UHGV virus genome: UHGV-1361614
Reading direction: 5' to 3' (one strand)
Origin: a virus
DNA length: 60,498 bases
This document shows positions 17,210-55,481 of the stretch, in pieces. Position numbers and translations under genes: made by a program. The notes below the pieces were generated by a model that saw only the letters and a program-made list of their open reading frames with translations, had not been told where the DNA came from and ran no database searches. Each line of letters opens with the position of its first letter. Position 1 is the stretch's first letter.

Positions 17210-17213
17210 TTAC

Positions 17214-17820: not shown

Positions 17821-17821
17821 A

Positions 17822-32071: not shown

Positions 32072-32788
32072 TTACCTACCAAAATATGATCTGTCAAGCT
32101 CTTCTAACCGGTCAAGATAACTGTCTGCCAATTTTCCAAGGTCTGTGAAGTGCTCAACAAGGTCAAGTGGATGATATGGAGCATGGCCAACTTCTTTTTT
32201 GTAAATTTCATTTGCCTTGTCCAAGTCATACTCTTCGCCAATTTTTAGCATAATGTTGTAATGCAGTTGAGACAACGGAGCATTGGCATTGTTGCAAATC
32301 CTGTACATCCTCCGCTGATTTCTAGCATACCAGCTAGGATTTTTCGGTATAGGTGTATTGCTTGGCTGGCAAACTGAAGATTGCTCCAAAGTTGCTGGTT
32401 TTGCTTTTGCCCGAAAGTATGTGTTCACCAACTCTCTCTGGACTTTCCAAGATAAATCATCTGTAAAGGTTTTGACTATCATCAGATAGCCGCTTTCTGT
32501 AAGCAAATAAGTTATAAGGCTTGGATTTCCCTTAATTATTTCATTAGGGGAATATCGTTCCCCTAATTCTTTTCTTGTCATTTCAAAGTAATCCTCACCC
32601 AAAATAAAATGCTTTTTATGCTTTTGAAAAGATTTCTTTGCGGTATCTGTTTGTTTTCCGTGTACTCTGTCAATGTCTTTTAGTGTCACAACCCTCTGCC
32701 CGTTGTACTCTCTCACTGGCATTTCAGTATTTTCAATGGTAATGACTTCTTTCATTTTTTCACTCAATCGTCTGCTGGATAGTTCCAT
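32072..32788 (-). CDS. ORF6N/Bro-N-like DNA-binding domain protein
   Basis: 238 aa; N-terminal VVTLKDIDRVHGKQTDTAKKSFQKHKKHFILGEDYF pattern. Confidence 0.55.
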   Translation of the reverse strand: MELSSRRLSEKMKEVITIENTEMPVREYNGQRVVTLKDIDRVHGKQTDTAKKSFQKHKKHFILGEDYFEMTRKELGERYSPNEIIKGNPSLITYLLTESGYLMIVKTFTDDLSWKVQRELVNTYFRAKAKPATLEQSSVCQPSNTPIPKNPSWYARNQRRMYRICNNANAPLSQLHYNIMLKIGEEYDLDKANEIYKKEVGHAPYHPLDLVEHFTDLGKLADSYLDRLEELDRSYFGR

Positions 32789-33799: not shown

Positions 33800-34465
33800 T
33801 TATGCTGTCAGATATGCAATATCTGCAAATCTCTCCAATCTGTCTTTGCAGTCCTTGTAAATATCTTTATATAGCATATTCATTGACATGTCAATTCTAA
33901 TTGTCTGTAAAATGATGCTTTCAACTAACGTCAGGTTATTCAGGTCGGTAACCGATGCAGCGTCCCGGTTTCCCCCAACAATTGACTTAGCCAGCTTCGT
34001 ATATGTGAGATACAGTTTATCAGAATGCGTACTGCCCTGTTCTTTCGCATAATCAACAAGCATCTTGATCACATCAGTTTCTTTCAGCCGGTTTTCTTTA
34101 TTGGCAAGTCTGGTGTCGTTCCACTGCTTTGACTGTTTTTCGCGAATAAATTCTCTCATTCTGATAAACTCGCTTGCCAGTCTTGCTTTGAAATTTACTA
34201 CCGCGCCATCTACGCCATCATTTCTCAAAAGCGTCATCAGAAACATTGCCTGCCCCTCATTTAAAAAGTATATTTTTTCTTTTTGACCGTTTTTTGAAGG
34301 CTCCGTTTTAAACGTAACCTTTCCGATCATAGGTGTTTTTTCAAACACTTCCTCATACTTCTGTATAATTTCTCTTACATTTTTGTGCTGATTTCCAGTT
34401 CCTTCCGCAATCATCTTGCTGTTTGTAAATACATCATTCCCTTTGAGTTCAACCAATTCATACAT
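33800..34465 (-). CDS. Rha-family phage regulatory protein
   Basis: N-terminal ELVELKGNDVFTNSKMIAEGTGNQHKNVREII is the Rha/ORF6N-like signature. Confidence 0.65.
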   Translation of the reverse strand: MYELVELKGNDVFTNSKMIAEGTGNQHKNVREIIQKYEEVFEKTPMIGKVTFKTEPSKNGQKEKIYFLNEGQAMFLMTLLRNDGVDGAVVNFKARLASEFIRMREFIREKQSKQWNDTRLANKENRLKETDVIKMLVDYAKEQGSTHSDKLYLTYTKLAKSIVGGNRDAASVTDLNNLTLVESIILQTIRIDMSMNMLYKDIYKDCKDRLERFADIAYLTA

Positions 34466-34555: not shown

Positions 34556-37500
34556 TTAAGTAAAGCTAAAACCATTTCTACTAATTCGACTATTCACACC
34601 ACTAACAAGTTCTCTGCCATCAAGGCTAATAGACATATTCTTTTCAGCAGTTTCCTTGGTGTTGTCTGCAATCTGTGACAGGTACGGAGCTAAGACATCT
34701 ACAACCGCTGCTTTTACTCCGGCAGTAATTCCAGCTACAATCTGCTCATTATTTGCTACTGCGGTCTTGCCATTGGAGAATTGACCAACCATTTCATTGT
34801 GATTTGCAAAAAACAGACCATCTTCTGGAAACCCACCTACAGAGTATTTCGGAATGTCAACATGAGCTATTGATCTAAAAGATACATGTGAAATGGTATC
34901 TTCTTCCATTTCTTTTGCCGCCTCATTGTAATCGCTAATCAAGTCATTCATGGATTCTGCGATTCGGGAAAGTCCAGTATTGAATACATCAATCATACCA
35001 TTGACTAAATCTCCAACCTCTTTCACAATGCCCTTAAATCCGGAATAGATACCGTCCTTCATATTGGTTCCAAATGGTTCCCACTTTTCCTTTGTGAACC
35101 AGGTAGACACATTGTTGGTAAACCAATTGTTGATATTAGTGTTCCACTGGGTTTCAAATTCAGCCCATTTATCCAGAAGTGCAGTTTTGAAGTGATCGCC
35201 CTGTTCCTTCCACTTTTCAACGGTAAACCATGTTTTTACGTTAGTATTCCACCACGTATTAGTCTTTGTTTTCCACTGAGATACAAATTCATCCCACTTG
35301 GCAATAAGACCTGTTTTCATTCCGTCCGTTGTAGTTTTCCATTTTTCGGTGGTAAACCACGGAGAAACATTTGCACTAAAAAATGTTGGCATTGCTGTTC
35401 CAGACCACCATACAGCAGCTTGGTTCCATGCATTCATTAACGATGTCTCAAGATTGCCAAAAATAGGATCCAGTGCCGTAGTAGTAAAACTTGACGCAAG
35501 ACCAGATACAGCAGTAGTACCAATCGTGCTAAACTGCGACTCACTAAGGGTATCAGAAATAGTATTGTATACGTCAGTAGCAAATGTGCTAATTGTATCA
35601 ATACCGTTACTGCTCTCAAATGGCTTGATTAAACCATCCAGCATACCTTGCCCAATCTCTTTCCATTTGGATTCAGAGAATATGTCATAAACATCATTTA
35701 TAGTACCGGAAATACCATTTTGCAGTCCTTCAATGAGATAAACACCATTCTCATCCATGACAGTAGACGGGGAATGGATACCAAGGATGTCCTTAAATTT
35801 ATCAATGACACTTTGAGCTACCGTACCAACACTCTCTTTGATATTATTCCAACCGTCTTTGATACCATTAATCAAGCCTTCCATGAGGTACCCACCCATG
35901 TCAGCCATAACCGTAGACGGAGAATGGATACCAAACGCCGCCTTAAATCCGTCAATAAACGGAGTGAAAATATTATCAATTATCCATTGACCTACAGATT
36001 TTAAAGCATCTACAATACCATTGTATAATCCCTGAATAATATTTCCACCGGCAGCCTGAATGTAAGTATCAAAATATGCTATAGTCGCATTAAATCCAGC
36101 AACCAATTGATTCCATACAGCTTGTCCAACACCTGCGGCCAAGGCAAATGATGCACCAATAGCAGCGCCTAAATATGTATACGCACTGCTTACAAGACCA
36201 GCATAATCAATAGTGGTTACAATCTTAATTAATTCGTTTACTATACTAATTCCAATTTGCTGCCAGTTAACCGAAGTAATTGCATCGGCTAAAAATCCAT
36301 ATAACCCCTCTACAATCAGCACTGCGGAGCTCACTAATCTCTCTGCCAGGCCTTCCCAGTCAATACCTACAAGAAAATCCATGACTCCTTCGCCAAAAGC
36401 TCCCCAGTCTGTTTCGTCAAGAAGCGCAATCAAAGTATCAAGCAAACCTGTGACAACAGAACTAAGACTAGATGCGGCTCCAGACCAGCTAAAAGTTGAT
36501 GCAAATGTATTTAAACTAAGCGCAAGACCACTTCCAAAATTAGTCCAGTCAAATGTTGTTGCAGCATTCTCTAATACCGTAAACGCCGCATTTAATCCAT
36601 TAGCGAACATTTGTCCAAGCTCATCCCATTGAACGGAGTTGACAATCCCATTGAGGCCTTCACCGATAAATTTTCCAATAGAGTCCCAATGCGTAACATC
36701 CAAAAGAGTATTTGCAAAATCTACAGCTGTGTTGACTGCTTGTCCAATCGTAGTACCAATTGATGTTGCCAAACCTTCTGTTTCAACAAAACCATTTATG
36801 AATGTTCCGATACTAGATGCAATCTTTCTTGCAGACTCTTGGATACCGTCCCAAGGGATAGAGTCCAGTCCGTTTTTGAGCCAAGTGCCAACAGCAGAAC
36901 CCAGCTCTGTAAAATCGCCAGCATTCCACATGGCTTTGATTTTATCAGCCCATTCCTTGTACTTGCTGTCAATATCTTGCGTCTCAAACATATCAGCAGC
37001 GCTTGCGCCGCCACCGCTGCCACCAGATCCGCCATTTTTGTTTTGGTCTACGACATTCAGTTCGTCAATTCCAAGCGTGTGGGTTTTAAGGTCATCCGCA
37101 GCCTTGCTAGCTCCGCCCAGGCTTTTAGCATAGTCCTGAGTTTGCTTTGTTGCTTTAATCCATGTACCGTGACCTGTAAGTGCAGAAAATAGCTGATTAA
37201 CAGCATTTGCCGCATTAATACACATCTGAATGATAGTATTTAACGCCGGAGCAAGTGCATTGAGAATTGGAGCTCCTGCTGCTGCCACAGAGTTTTTCAA
37301 CTGGTTCGTGGAGTTCATCAGCAATGACATGCTGGTGTTGGTTTCGTTGCTGTACTTGACCAGATTTTGCATGCCGTCTGTAAAGGCTTTTCTAAGTTTA
37401 TTGACCAATGCAAATAAAGTTCTTACACCAATTGCATATCTCAGTATCGTTCCCAGGTTTTTTAATAATGAATTATGAGTACCTTTGCTTGCACCGGTAA

Positions 37501-38821
37501 GCCCAGAAAACGCTTTTACCAGCTTGCTTTTAATCGATGATGCTAACGCAAGCACCGGTTTTTTGATAGCTTTTAACGGAGCAGACATGCCCGCAAATGA
37601 TTTTTGCGCCAGATATGCTGTTTCTTTCGCAGCTCGACCAATAAGTGGGATTTTTCCTACAACCCCTGGAATTGATTGTGCAAACGAAGCAATACCATTT
37701 TTAATTCCGCCCATAGCTTGACTGGCAACTGCTACCGATGTTTTTAATGCACTTTGGTTCGCAAGTCCAGGTGCTTGCCTAATGCTTCCGTCATCTGACT
37801 GAATTTTAATTCCAGCTGCAATTTGCGCTTGCTGGATATACTCTTTAGCAGAATTGGTAAGATATTTAAAGACATTACCATTTATGAGGTCCTTGAAAGA
37901 TTTAATCATTAAATCTTTCATATTCCGAAATTCACCAGCTAAATTACGGGTTTGCTGGCTGGCGTTCTCCAAGCCCTGTACTGTTTGTTGGAACATTTCA
38001 GGGTTATTTAAGGCCTGTCCGGCCTGCGCACCATATTCACTTACAGCCTGCGTCCAGTCTCTAATCTGTGCGGCTGACTCTCCAAATGTTGCAGCCATAG
38101 CATCAGCATTGTATTGCATATCAGAAACGGCTACTTTTACTGCGTCTTGAACTTCGGTAATGTTTTCCTTGACGTTATCTCCAAAAAGCTCTGATACATC
38201 ATGTACAACAAACATATCGTCAAATTTTGGAAATTCACCATCAATCGTACCTGTAAACTCATTGGGATTTGATTTTGTAGCTGCTACTTCTTGTGCCGCA
38301 GCAGCGGCTTCAATTTCAGCTTGTCTAAGAGCCTCAAGCTGTGATTTCAGGCTTTCAATCTGGTTTTCATACTTGACAACGCTTGCTACAGCCTTCTCGT
38401 ATGACTGACCGCCAGTATTTCCGGAAGCTTCTAATTCCTGCTGTTTCAGGCGTGCATTTGCTAAAGCATTAGTTAAAGAGTCTACTTTTTTTTGAATTTG
38501 CTTTTCAGTACCGGACATGGTAAATCCCTTACCAACTTCCGCATACTGCTTTCTAATCTCTTCTAATGACTTTGAAACATTCTTTGCAAGTCCAGACGTT
38601 TGATCCTTAATTTTTTTATTGATGGATGCAAGACTTTCTCCGCTATCCTGAGAAACCGCAGAGAAGCTTTTTCTAAGGTCAGATAAAGCAGAATTTTTTG
38701 TAAGCGCAGAAAGCCCTTCTGCTACCAGGCCTAATTTTTCAATAAGTTCATCAAGGCTTTCATTTGCCTCATCCGCCGTACTTTCAATTACTATCTCTAA
38801 AGAATCCACTTCTGCTCCCAT
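34556..38821 (-). CDS. tail tape measure protein
   Basis: 1421 aa; coiled-coil N-terminus; long A/G/S-rich low-complexity core; preceded by the chaperone pair. Confidence 0.85.
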   Translation of the reverse strand: MGAEVDSLEIVIESTADEANESLDELIEKLGLVAEGLSALTKNSALSDLRKSFSAVSQDSGESLASINKKIKDQTSGLAKNVSKSLEEIRKQYAEVGKGFTMSGTEKQIQKKVDSLTNALANARLKQQELEASGNTGGQSYEKAVASVVKYENQIESLKSQLEALRQAEIEAAAAAQEVAATKSNPNEFTGTIDGEFPKFDDMFVVHDVSELFGDNVKENITEVQDAVKVAVSDMQYNADAMAATFGESAAQIRDWTQAVSEYGAQAGQALNNPEMFQQTVQGLENASQQTRNLAGEFRNMKDLMIKSFKDLINGNVFKYLTNSAKEYIQQAQIAAGIKIQSDDGSIRQAPGLANQSALKTSVAVASQAMGGIKNGIASFAQSIPGVVGKIPLIGRAAKETAYLAQKSFAGMSAPLKAIKKPVLALASSIKSKLVKAFSGLTGASKGTHNSLLKNLGTILRYAIGVRTLFALVNKLRKAFTDGMQNLVKYSNETNTSMSLLMNSTNQLKNSVAAAGAPILNALAPALNTIIQMCINAANAVNQLFSALTGHGTWIKATKQTQDYAKSLGGASKAADDLKTHTLGIDELNVVDQNKNGGSGGSGGGASAADMFETQDIDSKYKEWADKIKAMWNAGDFTELGSAVGTWLKNGLDSIPWDGIQESARKIASSIGTFINGFVETEGLATSIGTTIGQAVNTAVDFANTLLDVTHWDSIGKFIGEGLNGIVNSVQWDELGQMFANGLNAAFTVLENAATTFDWTNFGSGLALSLNTFASTFSWSGAASSLSSVVTGLLDTLIALLDETDWGAFGEGVMDFLVGIDWEGLAERLVSSAVLIVEGLYGFLADAITSVNWQQIGISIVNELIKIVTTIDYAGLVSSAYTYLGAAIGASFALAAGVGQAVWNQLVAGFNATIAYFDTYIQAAGGNIIQGLYNGIVDALKSVGQWIIDNIFTPFIDGFKAAFGIHSPSTVMADMGGYLMEGLINGIKDGWNNIKESVGTVAQSVIDKFKDILGIHSPSTVMDENGVYLIEGLQNGISGTINDVYDIFSESKWKEIGQGMLDGLIKPFESSNGIDTISTFATDVYNTISDTLSESQFSTIGTTAVSGLASSFTTTALDPIFGNLETSLMNAWNQAAVWWSGTAMPTFFSANVSPWFTTEKWKTTTDGMKTGLIAKWDEFVSQWKTKTNTWWNTNVKTWFTVEKWKEQGDHFKTALLDKWAEFETQWNTNINNWFTNNVSTWFTKEKWEPFGTNMKDGIYSGFKGIVKEVGDLVNGMIDVFNTGLSRIAESMNDLISDYNEAAKEMEEDTISHVSFRSIAHVDIPKYSVGGFPEDGLFFANHNEMVGQFSNGKTAVANNEQIVAGITAGVKAAVVDVLAPYLSQIADNTKETAEKNMSISLDGRELVSGVNSRISRNGFSFT

Positions 38822-38887: not shown

Positions 38888-39664
38888 TTAAAAAATTCCT
38901 ACATCTTGCCTTCCTTCTGAATTTGTAAGATATAATGCGCACTCATATGGGTGCCCTGATCTTGGCTCGAAATAATACCAGTTTCCGCCTATTTCTTGCC
39001 AGCCCGTCACTGCATAGCCGTCATTGTTGAAATAATACTTATGATTGTTGATAACTTGCCAACATTTTTTGAAATATGTTGATTTCGTATCCGCATACCA
39101 CCAACCAGAACTATCATGATTCCACCCAGGAGTATACTCATTGCTTTCTGCAAGAGTCCAATCCGGTCTTCCGTATCCATCAATTCTGCTATTATTAAGG
39201 TTATATGACTTTTCACATACAGCACCGCCGTTGGGTACTACTTCTGCACCACTACTGGTATTGCCTTCAATCGTATAAACCTTTCCGCCAGAAACTTTTG
39301 TAACAATTCCTGTATGGCAAATTCTTGATGAATTGCGGAAAAAAATCTGATCCCCTGGTTTTGGATCAGATTTATGGTATTGGCCCTTATTTTTGAAATA
39401 CTGTGCGGATGTAGGTGTATAGGCGCTAAAACCGCCCAACAATTGTTTGGCTTTTACTAAACCAAAAGCCTGTACAAAGCACCAATCTACAAACATGTCA
39501 CACCAAGCTTGACCTTGAAGTGATGGATAAATGTCCCTGGCATACTTTGTAAAATTATTGCTGCCTGCATTATCGGTTTTGCTTTCCAAAGAAGATTTTG
39601 TTTTCTTTTCAAGATAACCAACTTCTGCTTTGGCAATTTCAATTATTTTTTCAACTGCACTCAT
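38888..39664 (-). CDS. CHAP-domain peptidoglycan hydrolase with C-terminal cell-wall-binding repeats
   Basis: Cys in QGQAWCDMFVDW and a His in ICHTGIV form a CHAP-like Cys/His arrangement; C-terminal GWQEIGGNWYYF-type repeats. Confidence 0.7.
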   Translation of the reverse strand: MSAVEKIIEIAKAEVGYLEKKTKSSLESKTDNAGSNNFTKYARDIYPSLQGQAWCDMFVDWCFVQAFGLVKAKQLLGGFSAYTPTSAQYFKNKGQYHKSDPKPGDQIFFRNSSRICHTGIVTKVSGGKVYTIEGNTSSGAEVVPNGGAVCEKSYNLNNSRIDGYGRPDWTLAESNEYTPGWNHDSSGWWYADTKSTYFKKCWQVINNHKYYFNNDGYAVTGWQEIGGNWYYFEPRSGHPYECALYLTNSEGRQDVGIF

Positions 39665-46895: not shown

Positions 46896-47147
46896 CTACT
46901 CTCCTTGTGGATACCATGTTTTTGAACTAGACTCATAAACATAAACTGTGCTAGTGTCTGCTGCAAGAGCTGCACTGCCACTTGAAAGGTCGTCATAAGT
47001 TGGGAGTTTGCTTAAGTCCTTGCTTGCAAACACATAATTTCTGACATTTCCATTTGTTTGAATGCAAGTTATGCTTCCTAAATCAGGCACATCTTGTCCT
47101 GGTTTGTAAACTTGGCCATCTTGCGTTACGGTATGATCATATTTCAT
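46896..47147 (-). CDS. hypothetical protein
   Basis: 83 aa; overlaps the portal stop. Confidence 0.35.
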   Translation of the reverse strand: MKYDHTVTQDGQVYKPGQDVPDLGSITCIQTNGNVRNYVFASKDLSKLPTYDDLSSGSAALAADTSTVYVYESSSKTWYPQGE

Positions 47148-48586
47148 TTTGCAGCACCTCCCGCTTTATTTAATTTTGTCGCAATTTCTTGAGCTTTTCT
47201 TTCCTGTTCTTCTACATCTTCAATGGTTTTCCACAAATTATCTAAATAGGATTTAGACAGAAGAAATGTCTTTTCTGCATCTCCCCAAAGACCTACCGTT
47301 TTAATTGCTACAAGTGGGTGGATGCCACATTGGAGAAGTTGGAGCAACGTCTGTGATTTTGTATACATATTATCCTGAGGACTATGATTAATCTGTACAT
47401 CAAAGTCTCTAACAGAAAGTTTTAAATCGTGCCCTGCTAAACGGAGAATATTAAGCGCAACTACCGCTAAACGTTTTTCGGAAGATTTTACAATTGGGTC
47501 CTTTAGCTTTGCTCTTGTCTTAGAAAAATCCCACCCATTACGGAGTTGGACAGCCCCTTGTGTATCACCACCAGTATTACTTTGTTTTGTCGGAATAGCT
47601 AATATAGACAAAGCATTATCCCACATATCATCTTTCGCAACCTGACATTGTGTTTGGTTGAGCTCCTGCGTCATTATCTCAACATCAGATTTGTTATCCT
47701 TGTTGGTTGATGTAACAACCAATGCATGGCTTTCCTTCATCTTCGCAAATGTTTCTTCATCAATCTGACAATTGACAAATTTCACAAAGTATTCTACAAA
47801 TTGCTGTATTCCATCTACACGGTTAGACTGCATATTATTAATTGCATCTAGCATAGATGACACCAATTCGATGTCCGAAATGCGTTCGTGGTTATTTGGA
47901 TATTCAACAATTGGGATTTCTCCGTATGTATGGAGTTTCGCCTCTAATACTTTGCTATCAACAATTTTGTAAGACATTGTGTCCGAAAACGCCATTTTGT
48001 AAAATCTTCCATTTTCATCTTTCAATTCTTGCACAGCCAGCAAAGGTTCTTCTGTGCTTCGGTTATAGATAACAAATGTATTCATCGGTGACGGTGCAAC
48101 AATCCTAAACGGTACGTCCCCTTTTTTGGGCTGTATAGCTTTAAAAGAAGTTCCAGTTGCTGACTGCCACTCACCAGACTTGATGTCTTTTTCCTGTTTG
48201 TTGGCATCTGACATATAATCATTAAGTTCATCAACAGCTTTATTAATAGCTTTATCATCTTTCCTACTAATAAACTGTATTGGTTCTCCATATGTCTGTC
48301 CAACTTTAAATTGGACTATTTCGTATGCATGGTTTTCAACAACCTTATTCAAAATATCTTCGTTGGACAGCTTTGTTCTGTAAAGCACCGGTTGATCTCC
48401 TTTGTAGTAATTCCAAAGGTATCTAATTGCTGTTCTGTTGTAGTTAAAGATCCCAATGCAATTTGCGATAACGTCCACTACGTTATTTACAGTAATGACA
48501 TCTGTATCTGTATATGCTATTTTTCTTCCATATCGGCCTTTGACAAGTTCTTGAAAGCTAACCATATTCCTGTTTAAATTCATCAT
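47144..48586 (-). CDS. portal protein (SPP1 gp6-like)
   Basis: 480 aa; size typical of SPP1-type portals. Confidence 0.7.
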   Translation of the reverse strand: MMNLNRNMVSFQELVKGRYGRKIAYTDTDVITVNNVVDVIANCIGIFNYNRTAIRYLWNYYKGDQPVLYRTKLSNEDILNKVVENHAYEIVQFKVGQTYGEPIQFISRKDDKAINKAVDELNDYMSDANKQEKDIKSGEWQSATGTSFKAIQPKKGDVPFRIVAPSPMNTFVIYNRSTEEPLLAVQELKDENGRFYKMAFSDTMSYKIVDSKVLEAKLHTYGEIPIVEYPNNHERISDIELVSSMLDAINNMQSNRVDGIQQFVEYFVKFVNCQIDEETFAKMKESHALVVTSTNKDNKSDVEIMTQELNQTQCQVAKDDMWDNALSILAIPTKQSNTGGDTQGAVQLRNGWDFSKTRAKLKDPIVKSSEKRLAVVALNILRLAGHDLKLSVRDFDVQINHSPQDNMYTKSQTLLQLLQCGIHPLVAIKTVGLWGDAEKTFLLSKSYLDNLWKTIEDVEEQERKAQEIATKLNKAGGAAK

Positions 48587-48779
48587 TAACCACCTTTAAT
48601 ACGCATTGTCTCTAATCTCCGATCGCTGCCATAAGTTGAGCTGCTTGGTTGATGTTTTTAACACAATCCATATCATCTGCTTCTTCTGGAGTCACATATT
48701 GCATCAATAATAAGAAAAGACTATTAATGGCTTTTGATTGTAAATCTATGATTGCCTGTTGCGTAGCAAACATTTCTAC

Positions 48780-48937
48780 TGTATTCATAAAATTTTGTCA
48801 AGTTAACGAATCCACCACTTCGCTAACTACCTCTCTAAGATTAAAAAGTTTTGGAACCTGTTCTTTTGTATATGCTCCGCTGAGTACCAGGCTCACCCAT
48901 GTTTTTACCAGTGCACTGTCTTTTGTGAATACCATAA
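48780..48937 (-). CDS. small protein, paralogue of 48939..49136
   Basis: Own translation: ..ALVKTWVSLVLSGAYTKEQVPKLFNLREVVSEVVDSLT aligns with PLVKTWVRLVRENIYSKNDVPNLSNLREIVWKILDKAE in the neighbour. Confidence 0.3.
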
Positions 48938-48938
48938 A

Positions 48939-49136
48939 TTACATCTCCTCATTTTCTGCTTTATCCAAAATTTTCCAAACAATTTCACGTAAATTGCTCA
49001 GATTAGGAACATCATTTTTAGAATAAATATTTTCTCGTACAAGTCTTACCCATGTTTTTACTAATGGGCTGTGTTCATCAAACATAAACGTATGTCTCCT
49101 ATTCAGTTGATTGAGGCACCATTGTTGCAAGCACAA
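48939..49136 (-). CDS. small hypothetical protein (tandem paralogue)
   Basis: 65 aa. Confidence 0.35.
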   Translation of the reverse strand: MCLQQWCLNQLNRRHTFMFDEHSPLVKTWVRLVRENIYSKNDVPNLSNLREIVWKILDKAENEEM

Positions 49137-49512
49137 TGGTCAATTCAGCAATCGCCATATCGCTGTCTGTTCTAGCCTGTTTTAATTTTTCTTCGAGCTC
49201 AGCAATCTTCTTTTCTTGCTGTTCTTCTTTTGTCATAGGAATATCAGGCATCCAAGTTTGTCCTTGCGCCCAATAGGTATCAGGATCAGCTTCAATTTGC
49301 CCTTGTGTATCTTTTGTCCTAAAAAAGACTTCATCATATACATATTCCATGCCACCAGATAAGTTTTCGTCATCAGAAAGGTAAGGTGCTTGGACAATAT
49401 TTTTTCTCATCCATACATCCGCCATTCCATCCGGTCGTGCTGAATATTGTATTTCCTTTGGAATTTCTGCAGCGTGTGCTGTTGTAATCATCCCATTGTC
49501 TCCTTTCTTCAT
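49099..49512 (-). CDS. hypothetical protein
   Basis: 137 aa; true start probably an internal Met, because it overlaps the RT 3' end. Confidence 0.35.
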   Translation of the reverse strand: MKKGDNGMITTAHAAEIPKEIQYSARPDGMADVWMRKNIVQAPYLSDDENLSGGMEYVYDEVFFRTKDTQGQIEADPDTYWAQGQTWMPDIPMTKEEQQEKKIAELEEKLKQARTDSDMAIAELTIVLATMVPQSTE

Positions 49513-50734
49513 TTATTAGGTTCTGAATTTTCCTATCAAAATCTGATATTACTTTTTCCGCAAAATGCAATACTCTGAAAAGTCTCAGCCTTTTTGATAC
49601 GTTTTTAGAGTCGCTGTTATCAAACTTGCCTTTAAAAGACATCAGTCTGCGGGCTTCTTTTAGCCCCAATTCTTTTCCTCTGGCTATCTTTGCCCTGGCT
49701 CTTAGAATTCCTCTTCTATGCCGCCTAAAAGTCCTGCGGCGTATGGTCATATGATCGCAATACACTCTATAACCCATCATATCTATATCTCTGCCATGAC
49801 ACTTGCCGTCTGGTCCGATGTAATCCGTAACTTCTATTCGCCAATTTGGCTTGATCGCAAGTCCTAAGGATCTATGCAATTCTTCCGTCAGTAGCTCCAT
49901 AGCCTTCTTCAAATCACGCTCTGATGCTCCCAAAAGCAAAATATCATCCATAAACCAAATCTGATGATAGGCTAAACGAGTGCGGACTACATCTCCACTT
50001 TTCTTCCTACGGGCCTTATACAGCCTCTCGCTTATGTAGTGATACGCATGCGACAAATAGTAGTTACAGGCAAACTGTGAAAAATATGAGCCGATCGACA
50101 GCCCTTCCGGGAATGAGTCAATCAGTTCACAAATCAACCATAGCAGTTTGGGATTTTTAACATCTCTGGCAAATCTTGCCTTTATGCGGTCCTGAGGTAT
50201 GGAAGGATAACACTTGCGTATATCTCCTTTCACCCAGTAACGGCAATGCTTTGGATCCAACTGGATCCACTTCTGTATCTGCCTTGCACCTTTCTCCTGG
50301 CCACGGCCTGGTATAGATGCCATTTGATACGGTCCGATTTTAGCCATAAACATTTCTTTGCAGGCTTCCACAGCGACATAATCAAAAATTTGATGTATGG
50401 GCTTCTGGATACCGATCCGGCGCCATTTTCCACATACATCATCGTACTTATCTTTAAACTCAATTTCTGGCAGATCAAGTTTTTCATCAATCAGCCGTTT
50501 TTGTACATCGTCCGCTATCTTCTCGATGCAATCGGGCAACCAATCTGTTACTCCAATCCTCATCATCTTGCAGACTTGACGGTAGGTAAGACTTGTATAT
50601 CTGGATAAAAAGTGCTGCACATCCGCACGGCCTTTCTTTCCGTCCAGCCATAGGTATATGCAGCGCTCTATAAATCCTATATCTATAATATCGACGCATT
50701 TATAACGTCTCATAGCAGTCCTTTCTGATCTCAA
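49373..50734 (-). CDS. reverse transcriptase, DGR type (DGR-2)
   Basis: 453 aa; FMDD catalytic motif (IWFMDDILLL); DGR-specific motif 4 GLSIGSYFSQFACNYYL (SQ motif); its TR lies about 190 bp upstream. Confidence 0.85.
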   Translation of the reverse strand: MRSERTAMRRYKCVDIIDIGFIERCIYLWLDGKKGRADVQHFLSRYTSLTYRQVCKMMRIGVTDWLPDCIEKIADDVQKRLIDEKLDLPEIEFKDKYDDVCGKWRRIGIQKPIHQIFDYVAVEACKEMFMAKIGPYQMASIPGRGQEKGARQIQKWIQLDPKHCRYWVKGDIRKCYPSIPQDRIKARFARDVKNPKLLWLICELIDSFPEGLSIGSYFSQFACNYYLSHAYHYISERLYKARRKKSGDVVRTRLAYHQIWFMDDILLLGASERDLKKAMELLTEELHRSLGLAIKPNWRIEVTDYIGPDGKCHGRDIDMMGYRVYCDHMTIRRRTFRRHRRGILRARAKIARGKELGLKEARRLMSFKGKFDNSDSKNVSKRLRLFRVLHFAEKVISDFDRKIQNLINEERRQWDDYNSTRCRNSKGNTIFSTTGWNGGCMDEKKYCPSTLPF

Positions 50735-50918
50735 GGGCTTTCGGTGTGACTACTAACCCCCTGGCATGTCCTCCGCCATGCCGCCGTAGCTGCTTTTCCA
50801 CAGTTCCGGTGCCGTCTCGATCAATTTTAGGGATTGCTCCCAAGGCTGCCTAAGCAGGCCGGTTGCACGACGCTGCAAAGTGCAAAACAACTTTTTCAAC
50901 ATTGTTTTATCAGAAAAA

Positions 50919-51024
50919 CGAGAGCAGTAGTTCCACCTGCCCCTGTCCAGGGTGTTGTTCAGATTCGAGCACCGGAGGCCAGCATTCGACCTATCGTTCA
51001 GATTGCCGCCCCAGAGCGGGGAAA
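50919..51024 (-). repeat. DGR-2 template repeat (TR)
   Basis: 106 bp; coding strand carries AAC/AAT codons; differs from the VR at 51149-51250 at about 16 positions, every one a TR adenine. Confidence 0.85.
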
Positions 51025-51114
51025 AACCACAAAGCGCACCTTGCAGCCCTTTATCTTTAGTATTTTATTTTTTTAATTAAGGGGCGCTCCCCTCTCCGCT
51101 ACGCGGTTCACCCC

Positions 51115-52953
51115 CTAAGCGGCTACGCCGCGACGGAGAGAGGAAAGGCGAGAGCAGTAGAACCACCAGCCCCCGGCCAGGGAGTTGTACAGATACGAGC
51201 ACCGGAGGCCAGCATACGACCAAGCGTGCAGACCGCCGCCCCAGAGGAACTCTCTCAGCGAGGTAGTTCGTTTTCCGGTATGCAGTCCATCGCAAAAACC
51301 TGTTGTGGATGATCCCGTAGCTTCAATTGGTAACTGCAAAAACGGATATCTTGGATCATATCCTTCTTTTGATATATACTTCCAACTGTCATTTGTGTCC
51401 GGGATCGTAATATCAAGCTTTACATAATCATCAGTCAACTTGTTATTTGCAATCTTTCGATTGTCATTCACGATGTAAGGCGTCTGACTGCATGTATCGG
51501 CATCAGAGTCATATACACTAGATAAGATAATGTCTGAAATAGTGGTATATGCGCCATGAGACAACTCAACTCCTGACAGTACAAATGGTTCTTTTCCCGA
51601 TGTGCAATTACTTGGTGATCCGTCCGGTCCTAAAACATCGTCACAATCCCCTGACCACCAATGCATCGTTGACAGATATACCGGAGATGTCAGAGTATCG
51701 TTCAGCGCAACTGTATCCGTGCTAAATGCCGTCGGTGCATCTACATACACCGCGCTGTTGTTATCATCATAATCCTCAATCTTGAGAATCTTCACATCGT
51801 CCGCATACTTATGCACGTTATCGTTTCCTCGATCAGTATTCACCGTTCCATTCTGGATAAATCCATATCCGATTGATGCATAGGAGCCGACAACAAGATT
51901 TTTCGCATTATTCTTTGATATAATAATTCTTTTTACATCATTTTCAATTACAGTAGCAGGATACTGATAAGAGTAACCCGTACATCCAGTCATAGTGACC
52001 TGAGAGTTTCTGTTGGCAAACTTCATATCCATCATCCACTGCGCCCACGCTACGTCTGTAGATGTCATACCACAGTACTGAGTACCCTTCTTTGCAAACA
52101 TGCTGATCTGCCCGTTGTGGGATACGTCTCTAATTAGTTTCTTACCAGAAATAGATGATACAATGTTTTCGTCATTGTAAACACCCGGATACTTAGCCAC
52201 AAAGTAGAATGATCTGTATGTACCATCCTGCCTTACAGCTCCATCCCAAGGCTTCATGCCATCAAGCTGATGATCTGCAAAATCCCAGCTATCTTCCATA
52301 TCATTGTAAATGCGCTTATAAAACGGGGTCAGGAACGCCATGTAGACATCTCCGTTGCTGCCGTCCCTAGAAAATTCTGGCGATCCTTTTACAGCTGTGA
52401 TATGCGGTTCTCCGTCTTCATCAACATAGCCGTTGACTTCGATACCGTTAAACATCAAGTCTGTAACCGGCTTGTCCGCCAAATCATTTCTTCCCTTTGT
52501 GGTAGCTGTAGAAGTCTGCACTACAACGTCCGCATTATCTCCGGTCTTGGTACCGAGCGGGGACTGAGAAGAGGCAAACTGTGGGAAGGTTACACCGCCA
52601 TGCCAGCCGGTACGATGCAGGTCAAACCACTGACTCCAGGTTATAGCGTCTTCTTTATCAGCCTTTTTATCATTAAGAGTAGTAATTCCCCTCACTAAGT
52701 CTCCCATACCCTCAGGTAAGGCATCCGTTCCGACTTTTTTATTTACCCCATACAAGGCAGCCATGCTCGGGATTTTATTTGCATCGTCAGCAATCTCGTC
52801 TTTTACCGCATCTATAATTGCTTTGACGCCATCGGCAGCACTTTTGATACCTGCCTCCATGTGATTAAGTCTGTCAGCATTTATAGGTGTTGTTTTATCC
52901 GGAGCATTTTTCCAGGATTGCTCGCTATAATCTTTTACATTGTCCAGTTTCAT
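51115..52953 (-). CDS. DGR-2 variable target: tail fibre-like receptor-binding protein with C-terminal VR
   Basis: 612 aa; N-terminus MKLDNVKDYSEQSWKNAPDKTTPINADRLNHME is typical of phage tail fibres; C-terminus WGGGLHAWSYAGLRCSYLYNSLAGGWWFYCSR aligns with the TR-encoded WGGNLNDRSNAGLRCSNLNNTLDRGRWNYCSR. Confidence 0.8.
   Translation of the reverse strand: MKLDNVKDYSEQSWKNAPDKTTPINADRLNHMEAGIKSAADGVKAIIDAVKDEIADDANKIPSMAALYGVNKKVGTDALPEGMGDLVRGITTLNDKKADKEDAITWSQWFDLHRTGWHGGVTFPQFASSQSPLGTKTGDNADVVVQTSTATTKGRNDLADKPVTDLMFNGIEVNGYVDEDGEPHITAVKGSPEFSRDGSNGDVYMAFLTPFYKRIYNDMEDSWDFADHQLDGMKPWDGAVRQDGTYRSFYFVAKYPGVYNDENIVSSISGKKLIRDVSHNGQISMFAKKGTQYCGMTSTDVAWAQWMMDMKFANRNSQVTMTGCTGYSYQYPATVIENDVKRIIISKNNAKNLVVGSYASIGYGFIQNGTVNTDRGNDNVHKYADDVKILKIEDYDDNNSAVYVDAPTAFSTDTVALNDTLTSPVYLSTMHWWSGDCDDVLGPDGSPSNCTSGKEPFVLSGVELSHGAYTTISDIILSSVYDSDADTCSQTPYIVNDNRKIANNKLTDDYVKLDITIPDTNDSWKYISKEGYDPRYPFLQLPIEATGSSTTGFCDGLHTGKRTTSLREFLWGGGLHAWSYAGLRCSYLYNSLAGGWWFYCSRLSSLRRGVAA
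51149..51250 (-). repeat. DGR-2 variable repeat (VR)
   Basis: At the 3' end of the target gene, about 10 codons before the stop; followed by a GC-rich imperfect hairpin at 51088-51148. Confidence 0.85.
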
Positions 52954-52965: not shown

Positions 52966-53169
52966 CTAATAATTAAATGTTATTCCAGAAGAGCAGTTCC
53001 GAGACGGAATAGGTTCGAGTTTTGCTTCATCAGAATCAACATAATACACAACTCGTTTCCAGCATTTGCGGCACTTTAGCACAATAACATTTATTGTAGA
53101 TTTTCCATCCCATCGGCCAACACGTCTGCCGCAGCGAGGGCAATATATTGTTTTAGGTTCAGATTTCAT
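52966..53169 (-). CDS. Com-like zinc-ribbon protein
   Basis: 67 aa; CPRCGRR ... CRKCWKR; the architecture recalls Mu Com. Confidence 0.45.
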   Translation of the reverse strand: MKSEPKTIYCPRCGRRVGRWDGKSTINVIVLKCRKCWKRVVYYVDSDEAKLEPIPSRNCSSGITFNY

Positions 53170-53289
53170 AAAATTCTCTCATTTCTGCAAAAGAAAAACG
53201 CTATCGTTTCGATAGCGCCTCTCAGGGGATTGGATAGTTTGGATTTTTTCAAGTATATTTTATAACATTGTTTTTTCGAAAGATAGATA

Positions 53290-53733
53290 CTAAGTAGGGA
53301 CATTTGGGGACATTTTGTCCTGAATATATTCTTTCCCATACATTTTCTCAAACAGATTTAATGCACTATACAAGATACGCTTTGTTTGTTTAAGTGAATA
53401 CACGCCTTCCAAATGAATGGCTTTAATTTCTACTCCAAGGATATATTTCTGGGCAAGCACATCGTACATATTCATGTCTGGAATGCTCTCAATCTGCTGC
53501 ACGATTTTTTTCCGCTTATCAATACTGTCATTGACTTCACGCTCCATATCCACTATTTTGCTCACATAAGAGCAAATTTTATCCGGGTCCTTAGTAGTTT
53601 GAACACGATCCGTATTGCTCGACATAGGGGCAGTTCCGCAAATAATTTCTCTGAGGTTTGCAATTTCTCTGATTTTATTCTCAACCATGCGGTCATATCT
53701 GCGGACCTGTGATAAATATTCCTTAGTTTCCAT
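53290..53733 (-). CDS. putative late-gene transcriptional regulator (ArpU/RinA-like) or small terminase-associated HTH protein
   Basis: 147 aa; C-terminal HTH-like DVLAQKYILGVEIKAIHLEGVYSLKQTKRILYSAL; stop abuts the large terminase start. Confidence 0.4.
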   Translation of the reverse strand: METKEYLSQVRRYDRMVENKIREIANLREIICGTAPMSSNTDRVQTTKDPDKICSYVSKIVDMEREVNDSIDKRKKIVQQIESIPDMNMYDVLAQKYILGVEIKAIHLEGVYSLKQTKRILYSALNLFEKMYGKEYIQDKMSPNVPT

Positions 53734-55481
53734 TATCTCAACCTCCTAAATGGATTTACTGCTGCTTCTACTTTTGCTACTCTATTTCCCTGGGTAACTC
53801 TTAATGCGAAGTTTGAAAATACATCCGGAACGTCATCCAATTGCTTTTTTCCAGATACCGAATACTGCTTTAATAGCGACATCATTATGCCATACGGCTC
53901 ATTTGGCCTGTAAAGAGACTGGTCCTTAAAAATAACATGCTGCAAGATCCAGCTTGAACATTGAAAAATCCTAGCTTCCTTATTGGTTTCTGTTGGAATG
54001 TCGGTAATATTGCATATCCAGCCTTTAGCCTCTACGCGCTTATTAACTTCCATTGCTACTCGATCACCACCGGCATTTCGCTCAAACTCGCATTCCTGTA
54101 CCTCATTATTTACCAGGATGTTTGCAGCATTCTCATACTGCATTTCGTAATCGGCAGTATTGTCGCACACAGCATCTACACAATAGTAATCTTCACCATA
54201 TTTCTGAAGAACCGGAAGAACAAAAAAGTCAGTTCCTTTTCCCTTCGTATCGCATTCTGCTGTGATAATTTCCGGTGTACCATGCGGTAGATTAAGATAC
54301 CTACGAATTTTGTCATCCGGAAACAAGAGGCCTTCACGCTCAATAGGTTGCTGTTTATACAGGCACTTATACGAAATTTCATCCATTAAAAGCTGCTGGT
54401 CCGCAAAGAAATCTACCGTAAATCCTGAGAACTCATAGTCAAAATTGCTTTCGCCAGTAACCGGGTCTATATCCGGGACCGCAATAACTTTTACTCTTGG
54501 ATTTCCAGCGTACATATTTTGGATACGACCAATAACATCATGGACACTCCAACGTGTGGCAATATGGATTTCCTTGCAATTATGTCCGTCTGTATCCTGT
54601 ATTTTTCTTTGGCGGGCATCTACAGCGTATTTATTCCATAGTTTTTCAAGGATAGCCGGATTTAAAGCCTCTTCGATACCGCCGATCATATCATCTACCA
54701 GAAGAAATTTTGATGCACGGACCTTACCAGCATTCTTACTTCCTACAGATGTACATTGGACAGACGGGAACGGCTTATATTTTCCCACGTTGAACTGCTC
54801 AACTTTTGCATTAGTACTTGTAACATACAAGTCTGGAAAAATCTCATTCCATGCGTATTCATCAGAATTGGTTACAATATCGTACATGCCGTCGTAATAC
54901 ATTCTGGTAATGTCACCGCTATGTGAATAGAATAAGTTAAAATCTTTTGGATACCAACCAATTACCGCTGCATTAAAGAATTTTTCGATTGTGGTCTTTC
55001 CAGCGCCAGGGATAAGGCTAATACACAAAATATCGTATTTATCATCAATCATGCCTTGCAGCGCATCAATTAGACCTATTTTTAAAAATTGCTTACGCCT
55101 AGGCATGTAAAATCGTTCCCGTGGCTCTCTCTTCTTTTCGATGTACCGAAAAAAGCTATCAACATTTTTATTTCTGGCTTCAAGTAACAATACTGAATAA
55201 AACTTTTCGATTAGGTCCAACACTGTCTTATTTGTGGTTTTACTGGAAAATGCATATTTTTCCAGGTCCCAGATTGTACCACCAGTTTGAGCCACACAGT
55301 AAGCTTCTATAAGCTCTTTGGCACGGTTCGTAAGCTGCAAACCATAGCTTATATCATTTTCATCATTTACAGCCACGTCACAAGCCTTTGCGTAGGCTTC
55401 AACTACAGATATGTCTATTCCATGCAGCTGTATGTATTTTTCATATTCTTGGATTTTTTGTCTTAGATATTCAGATGCCAA
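53733..55481 (-). CDS. terL: terminase large subunit
   Basis: 582 aa; Walker A ISLIPGAGKTT; Walker B FLLVDDMIG; C-terminal nuclease-like acidic residues. Confidence 0.85.
   Translation of the reverse strand: MASEYLRQKIQEYEKYIQLHGIDISVVEAYAKACDVAVNDENDISYGLQLTNRAKELIEAYCVAQTGGTIWDLEKYAFSSKTTNKTVLDLIEKFYSVLLLEARNKNVDSFFRYIEKKREPRERFYMPRRKQFLKIGLIDALQGMIDDKYDILCISLIPGAGKTTIEKFFNAAVIGWYPKDFNLFYSHSGDITRMYYDGMYDIVTNSDEYAWNEIFPDLYVTSTNAKVEQFNVGKYKPFPSVQCTSVGSKNAGKVRASKFLLVDDMIGGIEEALNPAILEKLWNKYAVDARQRKIQDTDGHNCKEIHIATRWSVHDVIGRIQNMYAGNPRVKVIAVPDIDPVTGESNFDYEFSGFTVDFFADQQLLMDEISYKCLYKQQPIEREGLLFPDDKIRRYLNLPHGTPEIITAECDTKGKGTDFFVLPVLQKYGEDYYCVDAVCDNTADYEMQYENAANILVNNEVQECEFERNAGGDRVAMEVNKRVEAKGWICNITDIPTETNKEARIFQCSSWILQHVIFKDQSLYRPNEPYGIMMSLLKQYSVSGKKQLDDVPDVFSNFALRVTQGNRVAKVEAAVNPFRRLR

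Follow-up and report, generated by a model that had tools for sequence, protein, structure and literature searches.

A compact DGR without an adjacent Avd gene in the terminase-portal interval of a phage genome that carries a second DGR

In the Bordetella DGR system Avd is essential (PMC5758913). Avd-less DGRs make up 29% of a curated set (PMC5758913), and Wu et al. 2018 (PMC5758913) describe among them both Architecture A1, a TR-RT core without an accessory gene, and the Avd-less "Lineage 3". Because 29% of curated DGRs have no accessory genes, a missing Avd does not disqualify a locus as a DGR. In gut phages there is a precedent for DGR targets whose genes lie away from the tail module and whose products are displayed on capsids (PMC10743442).

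Here we describe DGR-2, one of two DGRs in a phage DNA of 60,498 nucleotides (the window). All features of the cassette lie on the minus strand (Table 1). With a probability of about 0.9, we read DGR-2 as a complete, naturally active and compact Avd-less DGR, ordered target-VR-TR-spacer-RT, that was acquired as a 4.4-kb module and is independent of DGR-1, an avd-containing type with two tandem targets at 15.6-18.4 kb. The system belongs to a known kind and is ordinary within it, but its place in the genome is unusual. An earlier note on this DNA had spoken of a prophage; a serine integrase is indeed present, but the window showed no recognisable bacterial flank.

Table 1. Features of the DGR-2 cassette and its surroundings (window coordinates)
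Feature	Position	Strand	Remarks
Large terminase	53733-55481	-	Pfam terminase RNaseH-like domains; phrog_38, E=8.8e-42; left border
147-aa regulator-like gene	53290-53733	-	phrog_36/phrog_6417 matches of interval genes
67-aa zinc-ribbon gene	52966-53169	-	phrog_36/phrog_6417 matches of interval genes
DGR-2 target gene, 612-aa fibre-like protein	51115-52953	-	ORF, VR near C-terminus
VR	51149-51246	-	target codons 570-602, 14 diversified codons
IMH-like VR 3' end	51143-51160	-	12 nt as in TR (CTACTGCTCTCG), then CCTTTC
Conserved post-VR element	51079-51131	-	three small hairpins and motif
Post-VR hairpin GCGGC-GTA-GCCGC	51119-51131	-	within target's last codons
Post-VR motif GGGGGTGAA	51107-51115	-	
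Covarying post-VR hairpin CCGC-GTA-GCGG	51096-51106	-	pairing kept, sequence changes
Post-VR hairpin GAGGGG-AGCG-CCCCTT	51079-51094	-	
TR, 98 nt	50919-51016	-	non-coding copy, 21 adenines
IMH*-like TR 3' end	50913-50930	-	TTTTTC where VR has CCTTTC
TR-RT spacer, presumed 3' part of DGR RNA	50714-50918	-	invariant columns, covariation
Spacer hairpins H1-H3	50864-50877, 50844-50860, 50830-50841	-	
Spacer hairpins H4-H6	50784-50809, 50763-50782, 50734-50760	-	
DGR-2 RT, 446 aa	49373-50713	-	ATG 50713; IGSYFSQ, FMDD
137-aa companion gene	49099-49512	-	overlaps RT 3' end; phrog_37768
48- and 45-aa tandem paralogues	49085-48939, 48935-48798	-	phrog_5056, E=1.6e-14, 5.2e-22
58-aa ORF	48788-48612	-	third small ORF of inserted block
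Portal protein	47144-48586	-	Pfam SPP1_portal, E=1.3e-75; right border

The repeat pair and its variation among relatives

A repeat search recovered a 104-nt repeat with 85% identity (50913-51016 and 51143-51246), the identity first estimated for TR and VR; the repeats are real, though their ends had been drawn a few bases too long on the 5' side. Within them lies an ungapped core of 98 nt, with the two copies offset by 230 nt and separated by a gap of 132 nt. All 14 core mismatches coincide with adenines of the TR (8 A>T, 3 A>G and 3 A>C; hypergeometric P = 3.6e-12), so that the adenine bias stands on proper alignment. Of the TR's 21 adenines, 14 are substituted, each in the first or second position of its codon. 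Six extra nucleotides at the 3' end of the repeat add two T>C changes. The earlier note had placed all of roughly 16 differences at adenines; 14 of the 16 are there, and the other two belong to the IMH-like tail.

The translations of TR (LWGGNLNDRSNAGLRCSNLNNTLDRGRWNYCS) and VR (LWGGGLHAWSYAGLRCSYLYNSLAGGWWFYCS) are exactly those first given. The diversified TR codons comprise seven AAY, three AGG, two GAY, one ACC and one TAC, for which mutation to a stop codon is impossible, and the theoretical VR repertoire extends to ~1.2e12 protein variants with zero stop codons. We compared the 3' ends of VR and TR directly in the window and 23 related loci. These IMH-like and IMH*-like ends, like the hairpins downstream of the VR, are conserved but differ in sequence from their BPP-1 counterparts, and the VR end would play its IMH-like role by analogy with the Bordetella phage model (PMC3240598).

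VR variants do occur in related genomes, at the codons that contain TR adenines. One phage (L001), 97.7% identical to the window across 13.4 kb, has the very same TR, yet its VR departs from the window's at 16 of 98 bases, 15 of them TR adenines. At the protein level, the target belongs to a 90%-identity cluster of 255 members. We analyzed alignment columns in 16 sequences (15 cluster members and the window protein), where the 14 A-containing codons are the sole multi-allelic columns. Once the L001 protein is added, 543 of the 544 VR residues in the 17 proteins can be reached from the TR through adenine changes alone, with W/R/G seen at AGG, F/S/Y/C at TAC and V/A/D/G at GAY. Among the related genomes compared, close relatives combine an invariant TR with a hypervariable VR, as is typical of a DGR. 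That near-identical phages differ at exactly the 14 diversified codons argues that DGR-2 works, and sequence comparison indicates that it is active in nature.

The same data bear on whether TR and VR could be a decayed relic, in which a duplicated gene fragment lies beside an unrelated or dead RT. A related cassette (L044) does look decayed, with a split RT ORF and a TR and VR that differ at two positions only, and the activity of the window's copy is deduced from differences among its relatives. However, the confinement of all 14 core mismatches to adenines, the hypervariability of the VR between 97.7%-identical genomes that share a TR, the adherence of 543 of 544 residues to the adenine-only rule and an intact RT ORF with a catalytic FMDD largely refute such a relic already, and we consider it extremely unlikely.

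We analyzed the repeats in all 35 loci with enough upstream sequence (RT identity 36-100%), and the same architecture is present in each, with a VR-TR gap of 63-149 nt (648 nt in one locus) and a TR-RT spacer of 164-340 nt. In 34 related loci the TR/VR mismatches are dominated by adenines, and each locus has 0-5 non-A exceptions. This compact clade keeps the Avd-less order target-VR-TR-spacer-RT; its members occur in prophages of gut Clostridia, where they usually lie in tail modules.

The reverse transcriptase and its possible partners

The RT open frame (49373-50734) extends up to TTG 50734, but ATG 50713 is the likely start and is the gene callers' choice in homologues (n=366, called at 446-447 aa). 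The 453-aa protein originally proposed is thus likely to have 446 aa, while its SQ motif stands as IGSYFSQ. The ORF is intact and contains IGSYFSQFACNYYL and the catalytic FMDD, in keeping with the motif 4 ((I/L/V)GxxxSQ) and YxDD-type motif of DGR-type RTs. It matches Pfam RVT_1 (E=2.2e-10) and phrog_1423 (E=1.7e-63), and the best PDB match of its model (pLDDT 88.5) is the Bordetella DGR RT (8ub7_A, E=7.3e-16, TM 0.82 on target). Two features set the model apart from the Bordetella RT, which lacks both: a helical N-terminal extension of ~80 aa, described from the clade alignment and conserved in the RT clade, and a long C-terminal helix.

There is no room for a gene between VR and TR or between TR and RT. 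When 60 small ORFs, taken from the window and from the sequence flanking related cassettes, were searched for Avd (NCBIfam NF033474), the DGR-1 Avd was the sole match, which bears out the earlier statement that no Avd is adjacent. The ORFs flanking DGR-2 have no Avd signature, general Pfam searches surfaced no HRDC/MSL/CH1-type matches, and the ~8 kb on either side of related cassettes revealed neither another DGR RT nor an Avd.

RT2 might instead borrow the DGR-1 Avd (16838-17209) in trans, or use an unrecognised accessory protein from elsewhere. Avd is essential in Bordetella (PMC5758913), this genome encodes one 32 kb away, and avd genes are poorly conserved and easily missed. However, the Avd-less layout is kept across the whole RT clade, in prophages of many genera, with no second RT or Avd in the ~8-kb flanks, and an Avd-less DGR lineage has already been described (PMC5758913). 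Furthermore, although RT1 and RT2 both match phrog_1423, their alignment covers 123 aa at just 26% identity (E=0.001), making a shared partner unlikely. Overall, we consider borrowing improbable and favor an Avd-less DGR-2. The two RTs are distant homologues, not duplicates, and the TRs and targets of the two DGRs have no detectable sequence similarity. DGR-2 is independent of DGR-1, but the description of all three of its components as unrelated to those of DGR-1 fits the TR and the target and not the RT. A limited literature search returned no account of a phage genome that, like this one, carries two different DGRs whose RTs are distantly related.

Another candidate partner is the 137-aa companion. 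Immediately after the RT, and often overlapping with it, comes a small ORF of comparable length; this holds for nearly all related loci whose sequence reaches this point, and 21 representatives align as one family, as might be expected of a new DGR accessory that functionally replaces Avd. Yet members of this family also follow target-family fibre genes in the RT-less loci L118-L122 (by tblastn and called genes), and the family is about as large as that of the target (1285 versus 1338 matches), with only 366 matches for the RT. The protein is acidic with a C-terminal coiled coil, unlike the basic Avd. Because the family follows fibre genes with or without an RT, its distribution indicates that the companion is associated with the fibre rather than being an accessory of the DGR; replacement of Avd is very unlikely.

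The TR-RT spacer measures 184 nt to the TTG and 205 nt to the ATG and has a GC content of 0.50, compared to ~0.39 in the window, in line with the GC-rich spacer of about 185 bp noted before. It contains columns that are invariant across 22 loci. RNAalifold recovers both the base of H4 and H6, with compensatory changes; the AGUAG...AAACCGAA loop in H6 is invariant. In a four-helix model 74.8% of cells pair, compared to 38-53% with the partners slid, and the covariation score (0.391 versus <=0.222) was reached by 0/500 shuffles. A closing helix may form between UGAUC (~50819-50823) and GAUCA (50726-50730), and a ribosome-binding site, GAAAGGA, lies upstream of the RT ATG. The spacer matches no Rfam family, and the stretch from VR to RT yielded no convincing candidate for a sigma-70 promoter or an intrinsic terminator.

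Downstream of the VR, the GC-rich hairpin region is structured (MFE -20.5 kcal/mol, z=-2.06), but it folds into three small hairpins and not into the one long hairpin envisaged at first. The GGGGTGAAT motif and a GAGGGG-N4-CCCCU hairpin follow the VR in most of 24 related loci, with the motif truncated in L045/L047. The conserved hairpins and the motif occur after the VR only.

If DGR-2 operates like the Bordetella phage DGR, the 446-aa RT would bind an RNA that includes the TR and the structured ~205-nt spacer, copy the TR to cDNA and misincorporate opposite the 21 template adenines. The cDNA would then take the place of the VR, at the fibre gene's 3' end, with homing directed by the common 3' end (CTACTGCTCTCG and the diverging IMH-like bases) and the hairpin element downstream of the VR. 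From this analogy we infer the RNA, priming site, promoter and homing steps of DGR-2. In an Avd-independent form of the mechanism, the ~80-aa helical RT extension, the clade-specific spacer RNA with its AGUAG...AAACCGAA loop and the clade-specific post-VR element (GGGGUGAAU and the GAGGGG-N4-CCCCU hairpin) would replace the Avd pentamer and its RNA stem-loop.

The target protein and its genome position

Among 80 phages with terL identity >=81%, 75 have no cassette and a terL-portal interval of 570-1450 nt. The interval measures 5150 nt in the contig L038, which belongs to the 97.7%-identical relative of the window and is the one used for this measurement. Where the cassette is missing, as in L039/L040, ~15 nt lie between the zinc-ribbon gene and the portal gene. 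Most related phages have the regulator-like gene in the interval, and many have the zinc-ribbon gene as well; of the 75 without the cassette, 29 had both genes detected and 43 had one or both. The genes upstream of the insertion (52966-53733) are thus native residents of the interval. This arrangement indicates that the DGR-2 cassette, the companion and three small ORFs (48612-49085, minus strand) are a 4.4-kb acquired module in the gap between the zinc-ribbon gene and the portal. The cassette was correctly placed in the terminase-portal interval by the earlier note, but the junction it took to be contiguous natively holds two small genes.

The target consists of a ~90-aa N-terminal anchor, a central domain and a C-terminal C-type-lectin-fold domain that holds the VR, whose end lies exactly 10 codons upstream of the stop (TAG, 51115-51117), as had been estimated. 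As anticipated, the C-terminus is predicted to fold as a CLec domain, with TaqVP, a Thermus DGR variable protein, as the best match, followed by Mtd and TvpA. Thus, the VR occupies the C-terminus of a protein-coding target, in a predicted C-type-lectin fold, as in other DGRs. The target has no Mtd domain homology of the kind that marks Mtd-type targets (Bordetella phage Mtd family). In the model, the 14 randomised codons are predicted to sit on the ligand-binding face of this domain, and diversification probably changes what the phage fibre binds.

The target family, phrog_17147 (1338 matches), has no named function. The N-terminus matches the minor tail protein phrog_2012 (E=6.9e-11), residues 9-90 are 37% identical to mycobacteriophage minor tail proteins, the fold neighbours are computationally named "tail collar fiber" proteins, and some homologues bear BppU_N baseplate-anchor domains. 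Together with the tail-module positions of relatives' cassettes, these matches agree with the original designation as a tail fibre. That name fits less well with a further N-terminal match, to the "head fiber" phrog_5711, and with the position of the gene in the window, in the head-morphogenesis region outside the tail module. The target could instead be an adhesin displayed on the head or neck, a question of location that leaves its identity as a DGR target unaffected. Its position between terminase and portal and the "head fiber" match point this way, as do relatives in head modules: a distant cassette directly after the portal in L044-L047, and RT-less target homologues between portal and minor-capsid genes in L118-L121. 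Capsid-displayed DGR targets are also known in gut phages (PMC10743442). However, minor tail proteins are the stronger N-terminal matches, some homologues have baseplate anchors, the fold neighbours are named as tail (collar) fibres, and in other prophages the cassette comes after Dit/Tal or baseplate/tail-fibre genes and before lysis genes. We regard head or neck display as unlikely. If true, each DGR would diversify a binding surface of its own, and the two surfaces of the phage would evolve separately. It is likewise doubtful that DGR-2 combines a mechanistically distinct, Avd-independent DGR branch with such an adhesin and two separately evolving surfaces.

Comparison with described DGRs

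DGR-2 has the gene order of the BPP-1 DGR (mtd-avd-TR-brt) except for avd. The two also share adenine-specific TR-to-VR differences with an AAY-rich TR, a C-type-lectin-fold variable domain on a phage fibre, and a common 3' repeat end with GC-rich hairpin(s) beyond the VR; the RT model of DGR-2 best matches bRT (8ub7). In having no accessory gene, a single adjacent target, few non-adenine substitutions and a likely phage association, DGR-2 resembles Architecture A1 and Lineage 3 (PMC5758913). PMC5758913 describes no RNA or post-VR element to set beside those of DGR-2. TaqVP (PDB 5vf4), a bacterial protein of 381 aa, is only 14% identical to the target and is no phage fibre, whereas the DGR-2 target has 612 aa and a fibre-type N-terminal anchor. 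Like DGR-2, gut DGRs (Hankyphage, Faecalibacterium prophages, "tentaclin"/Hoc-like targets) belong to temperate phages that diversify receptor-binding or surface proteins. In the gut-phage DGR reports that our literature searches turned up, one RT serves one or two targets, whereas the window contains two DGRs.

Template and variable repeats of a modular fibre gene

The template repeat (TR) and variable repeat (VR) of DGR-2 align best without gaps at an offset of 230 nt, with all features on the minus strand. The two cores differ at 14 positions, and all 14 fall on TR adenines (8 A>T, 3 A>G and 3 A>C), an outcome with a chance probability of 3.6e-12 given 21 adenines in 98 nt. Each of these mismatches lies at codon position 1 or 2 of the target frame. 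An independent repeat search returned the same pair as a 104-nt repeat of 85% identity, whose six extra 3' bases read CCTTTC in the VR and TTTTTC in the TR and hold the only two non-adenine differences. The earlier note, whose TR and VR peptide translations are exact, had placed every mismatch at a TR adenine; this holds for the 14 in the core but not for the two in the last six bases. The VR ends 10 codons before the target stop, and a promoter and terminator consensus scan from VR to RT gave nothing convincing.

Coordinates of the two DGRs and of the small ORFs that accompany DGR-2
Feature	Coordinates	Strand	Details
DGR-2 target ORF	51115-52953	-	612 aa
DGR-2 VR core	51149-51246	-	98 nt, aligned ungapped to TR
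DGR-2 post-VR composite	51079-51131	-	24 loci compared
DGR-2 TR core	50919-51016	-	98 nt, 21 adenines
DGR-2 spacer	50714-50918	-	
RT2 ORF	49373-50734	-	Pfam RVT_1 match; IGSYFSQ and FMDD
Tandem paralogous ORFs	48798-49085	-	48 and 45 aa; PHROG 5056, function unnamed; travel with cassette
58-aa ORF	48612-48788	-	Travels with cassette
DGR-1 whole	15615-18427	-	Canonical, avd-containing, two tandem targets
DGR-1 RT	15615-16640	-	
DGR-1 TR	16739-16812	-	21 adenines
DGR-1 Avd	16838-17209	-	
DGR-1 VR1a	17247-17320	-	14 A-only mismatches
DGR-1 VR1b	17858-17931	-	8 A mismatches and one C>T

The target belongs to PHROG 17147, a family of unnamed function (E=8.9e-117). Its residues 9-68 match a 'minor tail protein' PHROG (E=6.9e-11) and residues 9-90 match mycobacteriophage minor tail proteins, while a 'head fiber' PHROG also matches the N-terminus, more weakly. 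Some homologues carry a BppU_N baseplate anchor in place of this N-terminus. In a viral structure library, the target model found many proteins of uncultured gut phages that are computationally named tail or tail-collar fibres. Given the N-terminal matches, the anchor swaps and the fold matches, we conclude that the target is a modular fibre or adhesin with an exchangeable N-terminal anchor and a conserved binding module of ~500 aa.

Related genomes hold a hypervariable VR beside a constant TR. An IMG/VR contig (locus L001) shares 97.7% identity with the window over 13.4 kb and has an identical TR, but its VR shows 16 differences in 98 positions, of which 15 fall on TR adenines. The target's 90%-identity protein cluster has 255 distinct members, and we compared 15 of these with the window protein, column by column. 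Across the 16 sequences, 14 columns between residues 574 and 599 have 2-9 alleles each, and these are exactly the adenine-containing codons of the TR; outside the VR, nearly all variation consists of singletons. Adding the L001 protein gave 17 proteins and, over 32 codons, 544 residue observations, 543 of which can be reached from the TR codon by adenine changes alone. The sole exception is a single G>T change in L001. Observed residues follow the template codon: W, R or G for AGG; Y, F or C for TAC; D, A, G or V for GAY; and T, S or A for ACC. The variable codons (7 AAY, 3 AGG, 2 GAY, ACC and TAC) make stop codons impossible and allow ~1.2e12 protein variants. Adenine-ruled VR variation opposite a constant TR is the signature of mutagenic retrohoming in natural populations. 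As read from these related genomes, DGR-2 is evidently a second, independent and active DGR.

Reverse transcriptase and absence of Avd

RT2, the DGR-2 reverse transcriptase, starts at the ATG at 50713 if the gene callers' choice in its homologues is followed, giving 446 aa. When its model (pLDDT 88.5) was compared by fold, the top match was 8ub7, the RT of the Bordetella DGR within its ribonucleoprotein (TM 0.82 on the target structure, E=7.3e-16), followed by group-II-intron-like RTs. A four-helix N-terminal region of ~80 aa and a long C-terminal helix are extra to RT2, and both are conserved through the clade. Close relatives conserve the RT2 C-terminal tail, which ends ...PF, although it is modelled as disordered (pLDDT <50 from residue 414).

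The earlier note described the RTs of DGR-1 and DGR-2 as unrelated. However, they share 26% identity over 123 aa (E=0.001) and match one common RT PHROG, and they are distant homologues, neither duplicates nor unrelated. Both DGR-1 targets end ...VSPSG...GVRPFCI. We found nothing explicit in the literature on two different DGRs in one phage genome, which is absence of evidence only. Here, a single temperate gut phage has two distantly related DGRs acting on three proteins.

Scanning IMG/VR and one genome per species for RT2 relatives yielded 37 loci at 36-100% identity. Most come from gut Clostridia (Enterocloster, Lachnoclostridium, Hespellia, Blautia, Dorea, Coprococcus, Ruminococcus and Oscillospiraceae), and one is from Mesobacillus. 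Wherever the upstream sequence is long enough, a homologue of the target module lies directly upstream of the RT, and the mismatches of the TR/VR pairs are adenine-dominated. VR and TR are 63-149 nt apart (648 nt in one locus), and the spacer from TR to RT measures 164-340 nt; neither has room for a gene. No near-identical DNA was found in an annotated phage collection. Only uncultured human-faecal 'Bacteriophage sp.' records of at most 35% identity were returned by tblastn, and because all are unannotated, they provide no curated context.

The absence of an Avd next to DGR-2, already remarked on in the earlier note, was borne out: the ORFs flanking the cassette in the window have no Avd signature, and there is no space for the gene inside it. 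We also scanned 60 small ORFs with NCBIfam, of which the window supplied 34 and the flanks of related cassettes 26 (9 of 10 loci contributed). The Avd of DGR-1 was the sole match to the Avd model in this set.

Insertion between terminase and portal genes

The window encodes a serine integrase, anti-repressors, tape measure, major head protein, portal and terminase, a gene content that marks it as a temperate siphovirus-like phage. The integrase agrees with the earlier designation as a prophage, but no bacterial flanking genes were recognised at either end of the window. Three anti-repressor/Rha-like genes on the minus strand (33800-34465, 32072-32788 and 31212-31886) occupy an odd site for regulators, between the tape-measure gene (34556-38821) and the gene for a 763-aa protein of no known function (28054-30345); a fourth anti-repressor gene lies at 22009-22785. 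Directly upstream of the tape-measure gene and outside any lysis cassette, a 258-aa protein (38888-39664, minus strand) has endolysin-like PHROG matches.

We surveyed 80 phages with a large terminase at least 81% identical to that of the window. The terL-portal interval of 75 of these phages measures 570-1450 nt and contains no cassette. Among these 75, a 147-aa regulator-like gene was detected in the interval in 41 and a 67-aa zinc-ribbon gene in 31, with both detected in 29 and neither in 32. The interval extends to 5150 nt at locus L038, on the same contig as L001, and the more distant relative L004 has the same layout. Within the inserted 4.4 kb, from 52953 to 48612, lie the target, the TR, the RT, the companion gene and three small ORFs, and we saw no target-site duplication at the borders of the insertion. 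Thus, of the earlier proposal that the cassette interrupts a contiguous terminase-portal junction, the insertion stands, but the junction already held small genes.

Relatives carry the cassette elsewhere. In L044-L047, IMG/VR loci with a terminase 83-84% identical to the window's, a distant cassette of the same family (31-37% identity) directly follows the portal and a small 84-aa gene. L044 has a split RT ORF and just 2 differences between TR and VR, so its copy may be decaying or may recently have been reset. In a Dorea prophage, the cassette follows Dit and Tal and precedes the lysis genes; in Oscillospiraceae and Lachnoclostridium prophages, it lies after the baseplate and tail-fibre genes, again before the lysis genes. 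These are the positions expected of a tail fibre. Among gut phages, there are known cases of DGR targets displayed on the capsid (PMC10743442). With both head- and tail-module positions among the relatives, the fibre may sit on either the tail or the head of this virion.

In nearly all loci that reach far enough, the next ORF after the RT is one of 105-150 aa, and the two often overlap. The 21 representatives aligned form a single family, which has 1285 detectable members. In the window, the 3' end of RT2 and the companion gene overlap by 140 nt (49373-49512, minus strand). We considered the 137-aa companion as a new DGR accessory and rejected this, as its family follows fibre genes in loci that have no RT. 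These loci, L118-L122 on ENA metagenome contigs, contain the target fibre family and the companion. In L118-L121, the pair is placed between portal and minor-capsid genes, sometimes with an opposite-strand HNH gene in the gap where the RT would be. The companion gene belongs with the fibre gene, and the TR-RT unit is placed between these two. For the small downstream ORFs, an XkdW/XkdX-like identity was unsupported by Pfam or PDB profile searches, and only unnamed PHROGs match. Among Clostridia phages, the fibre module has changed place between tail and head gene clusters, with or without a DGR, and this mobility is relevant to how phages in the gut keep up with changing host surfaces.

Conserved cis elements and comparison with known DGRs

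Downstream of the VR, the earlier note had drawn one long imperfect hairpin. The region is GC-rich and foldable (MFE -20.5 kcal/mol, z=-2.06), but a conserved composite describes it better, in which a GGGGTGAAT motif is followed by one hairpin and next by a GAGGGG-N4-CCCCU hairpin. Across the 24 loci compared, the middle hairpin changes in sequence while its pairing is kept. The GGGGTGAAT motif, truncated in L045 and L047, resembles GGGGUUAGUAG, the start of the spacer's terminal hairpin. The composite follows the VR and is absent after the TR. The Bordetella phage cassette has a comparable GC-rich inverted repeat beyond the IMH, the homing element at the VR 3' end (PMC5758913), and its target-site recognition has been studied (PMC3240598). 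By this parallel, we infer that the post-VR element may function in target-site recognition.

The spacer appears to form an RNA of several hairpins, with stems that covary and one invariant loop, AGUAG...AAACCGAA. Its conserved hairpins span RTs of only 36-50% identity (loci L003-L047), and in 22 divergent loci the invariant bases of the terminal-hairpin loop are AGUA, CCG and neighbouring A's. RNAalifold found the terminal hairpin and the base of a second one, with compensatory changes. Run on the alignment of the whole spacer, it returned a single hairpin, since aligning by sequence shifts the hairpin arms out of register. Because a four-helix model was derived from the window itself and applied to an alignment made by sequence, its numbers are indicative only: 74.8% of cells pair, compared with 38-53% when the partners are slid by 1-3 columns, and the covariation score is 0.391 against at most 0.222, with none of 500 shuffles reaching 0.391. 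The least certain helix is P1, a possible long-range closing helix with 60% of cells paired; in a crude and weak test, 55% of cognate and 32% of non-cognate pairings had at least 5 bp. An Rfam search of the cassette found no family for the spacer. Its sole match was sub-threshold (ctRNA_p42d, 28.9 bits against a gathering score of 50), to a terminator-like hairpin with a U-run at 53187-53222 (minus strand), between the regulator-like and zinc-ribbon genes.

DGR-2 is a minimal DGR, with a TR, a spacer, one RT gene and no Avd, whose rewriting of a fibre tip is documented in natural populations. Compact cassettes of this kind are an attractive, simpler chassis for targeted in-vivo mutagenesis, and they allow one to ask which functions of the Avd-RNA complex a DGR can do without. 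As concrete sequences to mutate, the spacer RNA and the post-VR element, both conserved, could make Avd independence testable. The interest is moderate and lies in two DGRs in one phage, a demonstrable insertion in the head-gene region and the clade-wide RNA and DNA elements; the known concept of a DGR is unchanged.

The Bordetella spacer RNA is wound around the RT and offers Avd a stem-loop, and the published survey of such spacer elements covers Avd-containing DGRs only (bioRxiv 10.1101/2023.10.23.563531). In a curated DGR set, 29% are cassettes with a TR-RT core and no Avd, and one RT lineage is described as being without avd throughout (PMC5758913). Therefore, the architecture of DGR-2, an Avd-less and compact cassette with a lectin-fold fibre target, is of a kind already known.
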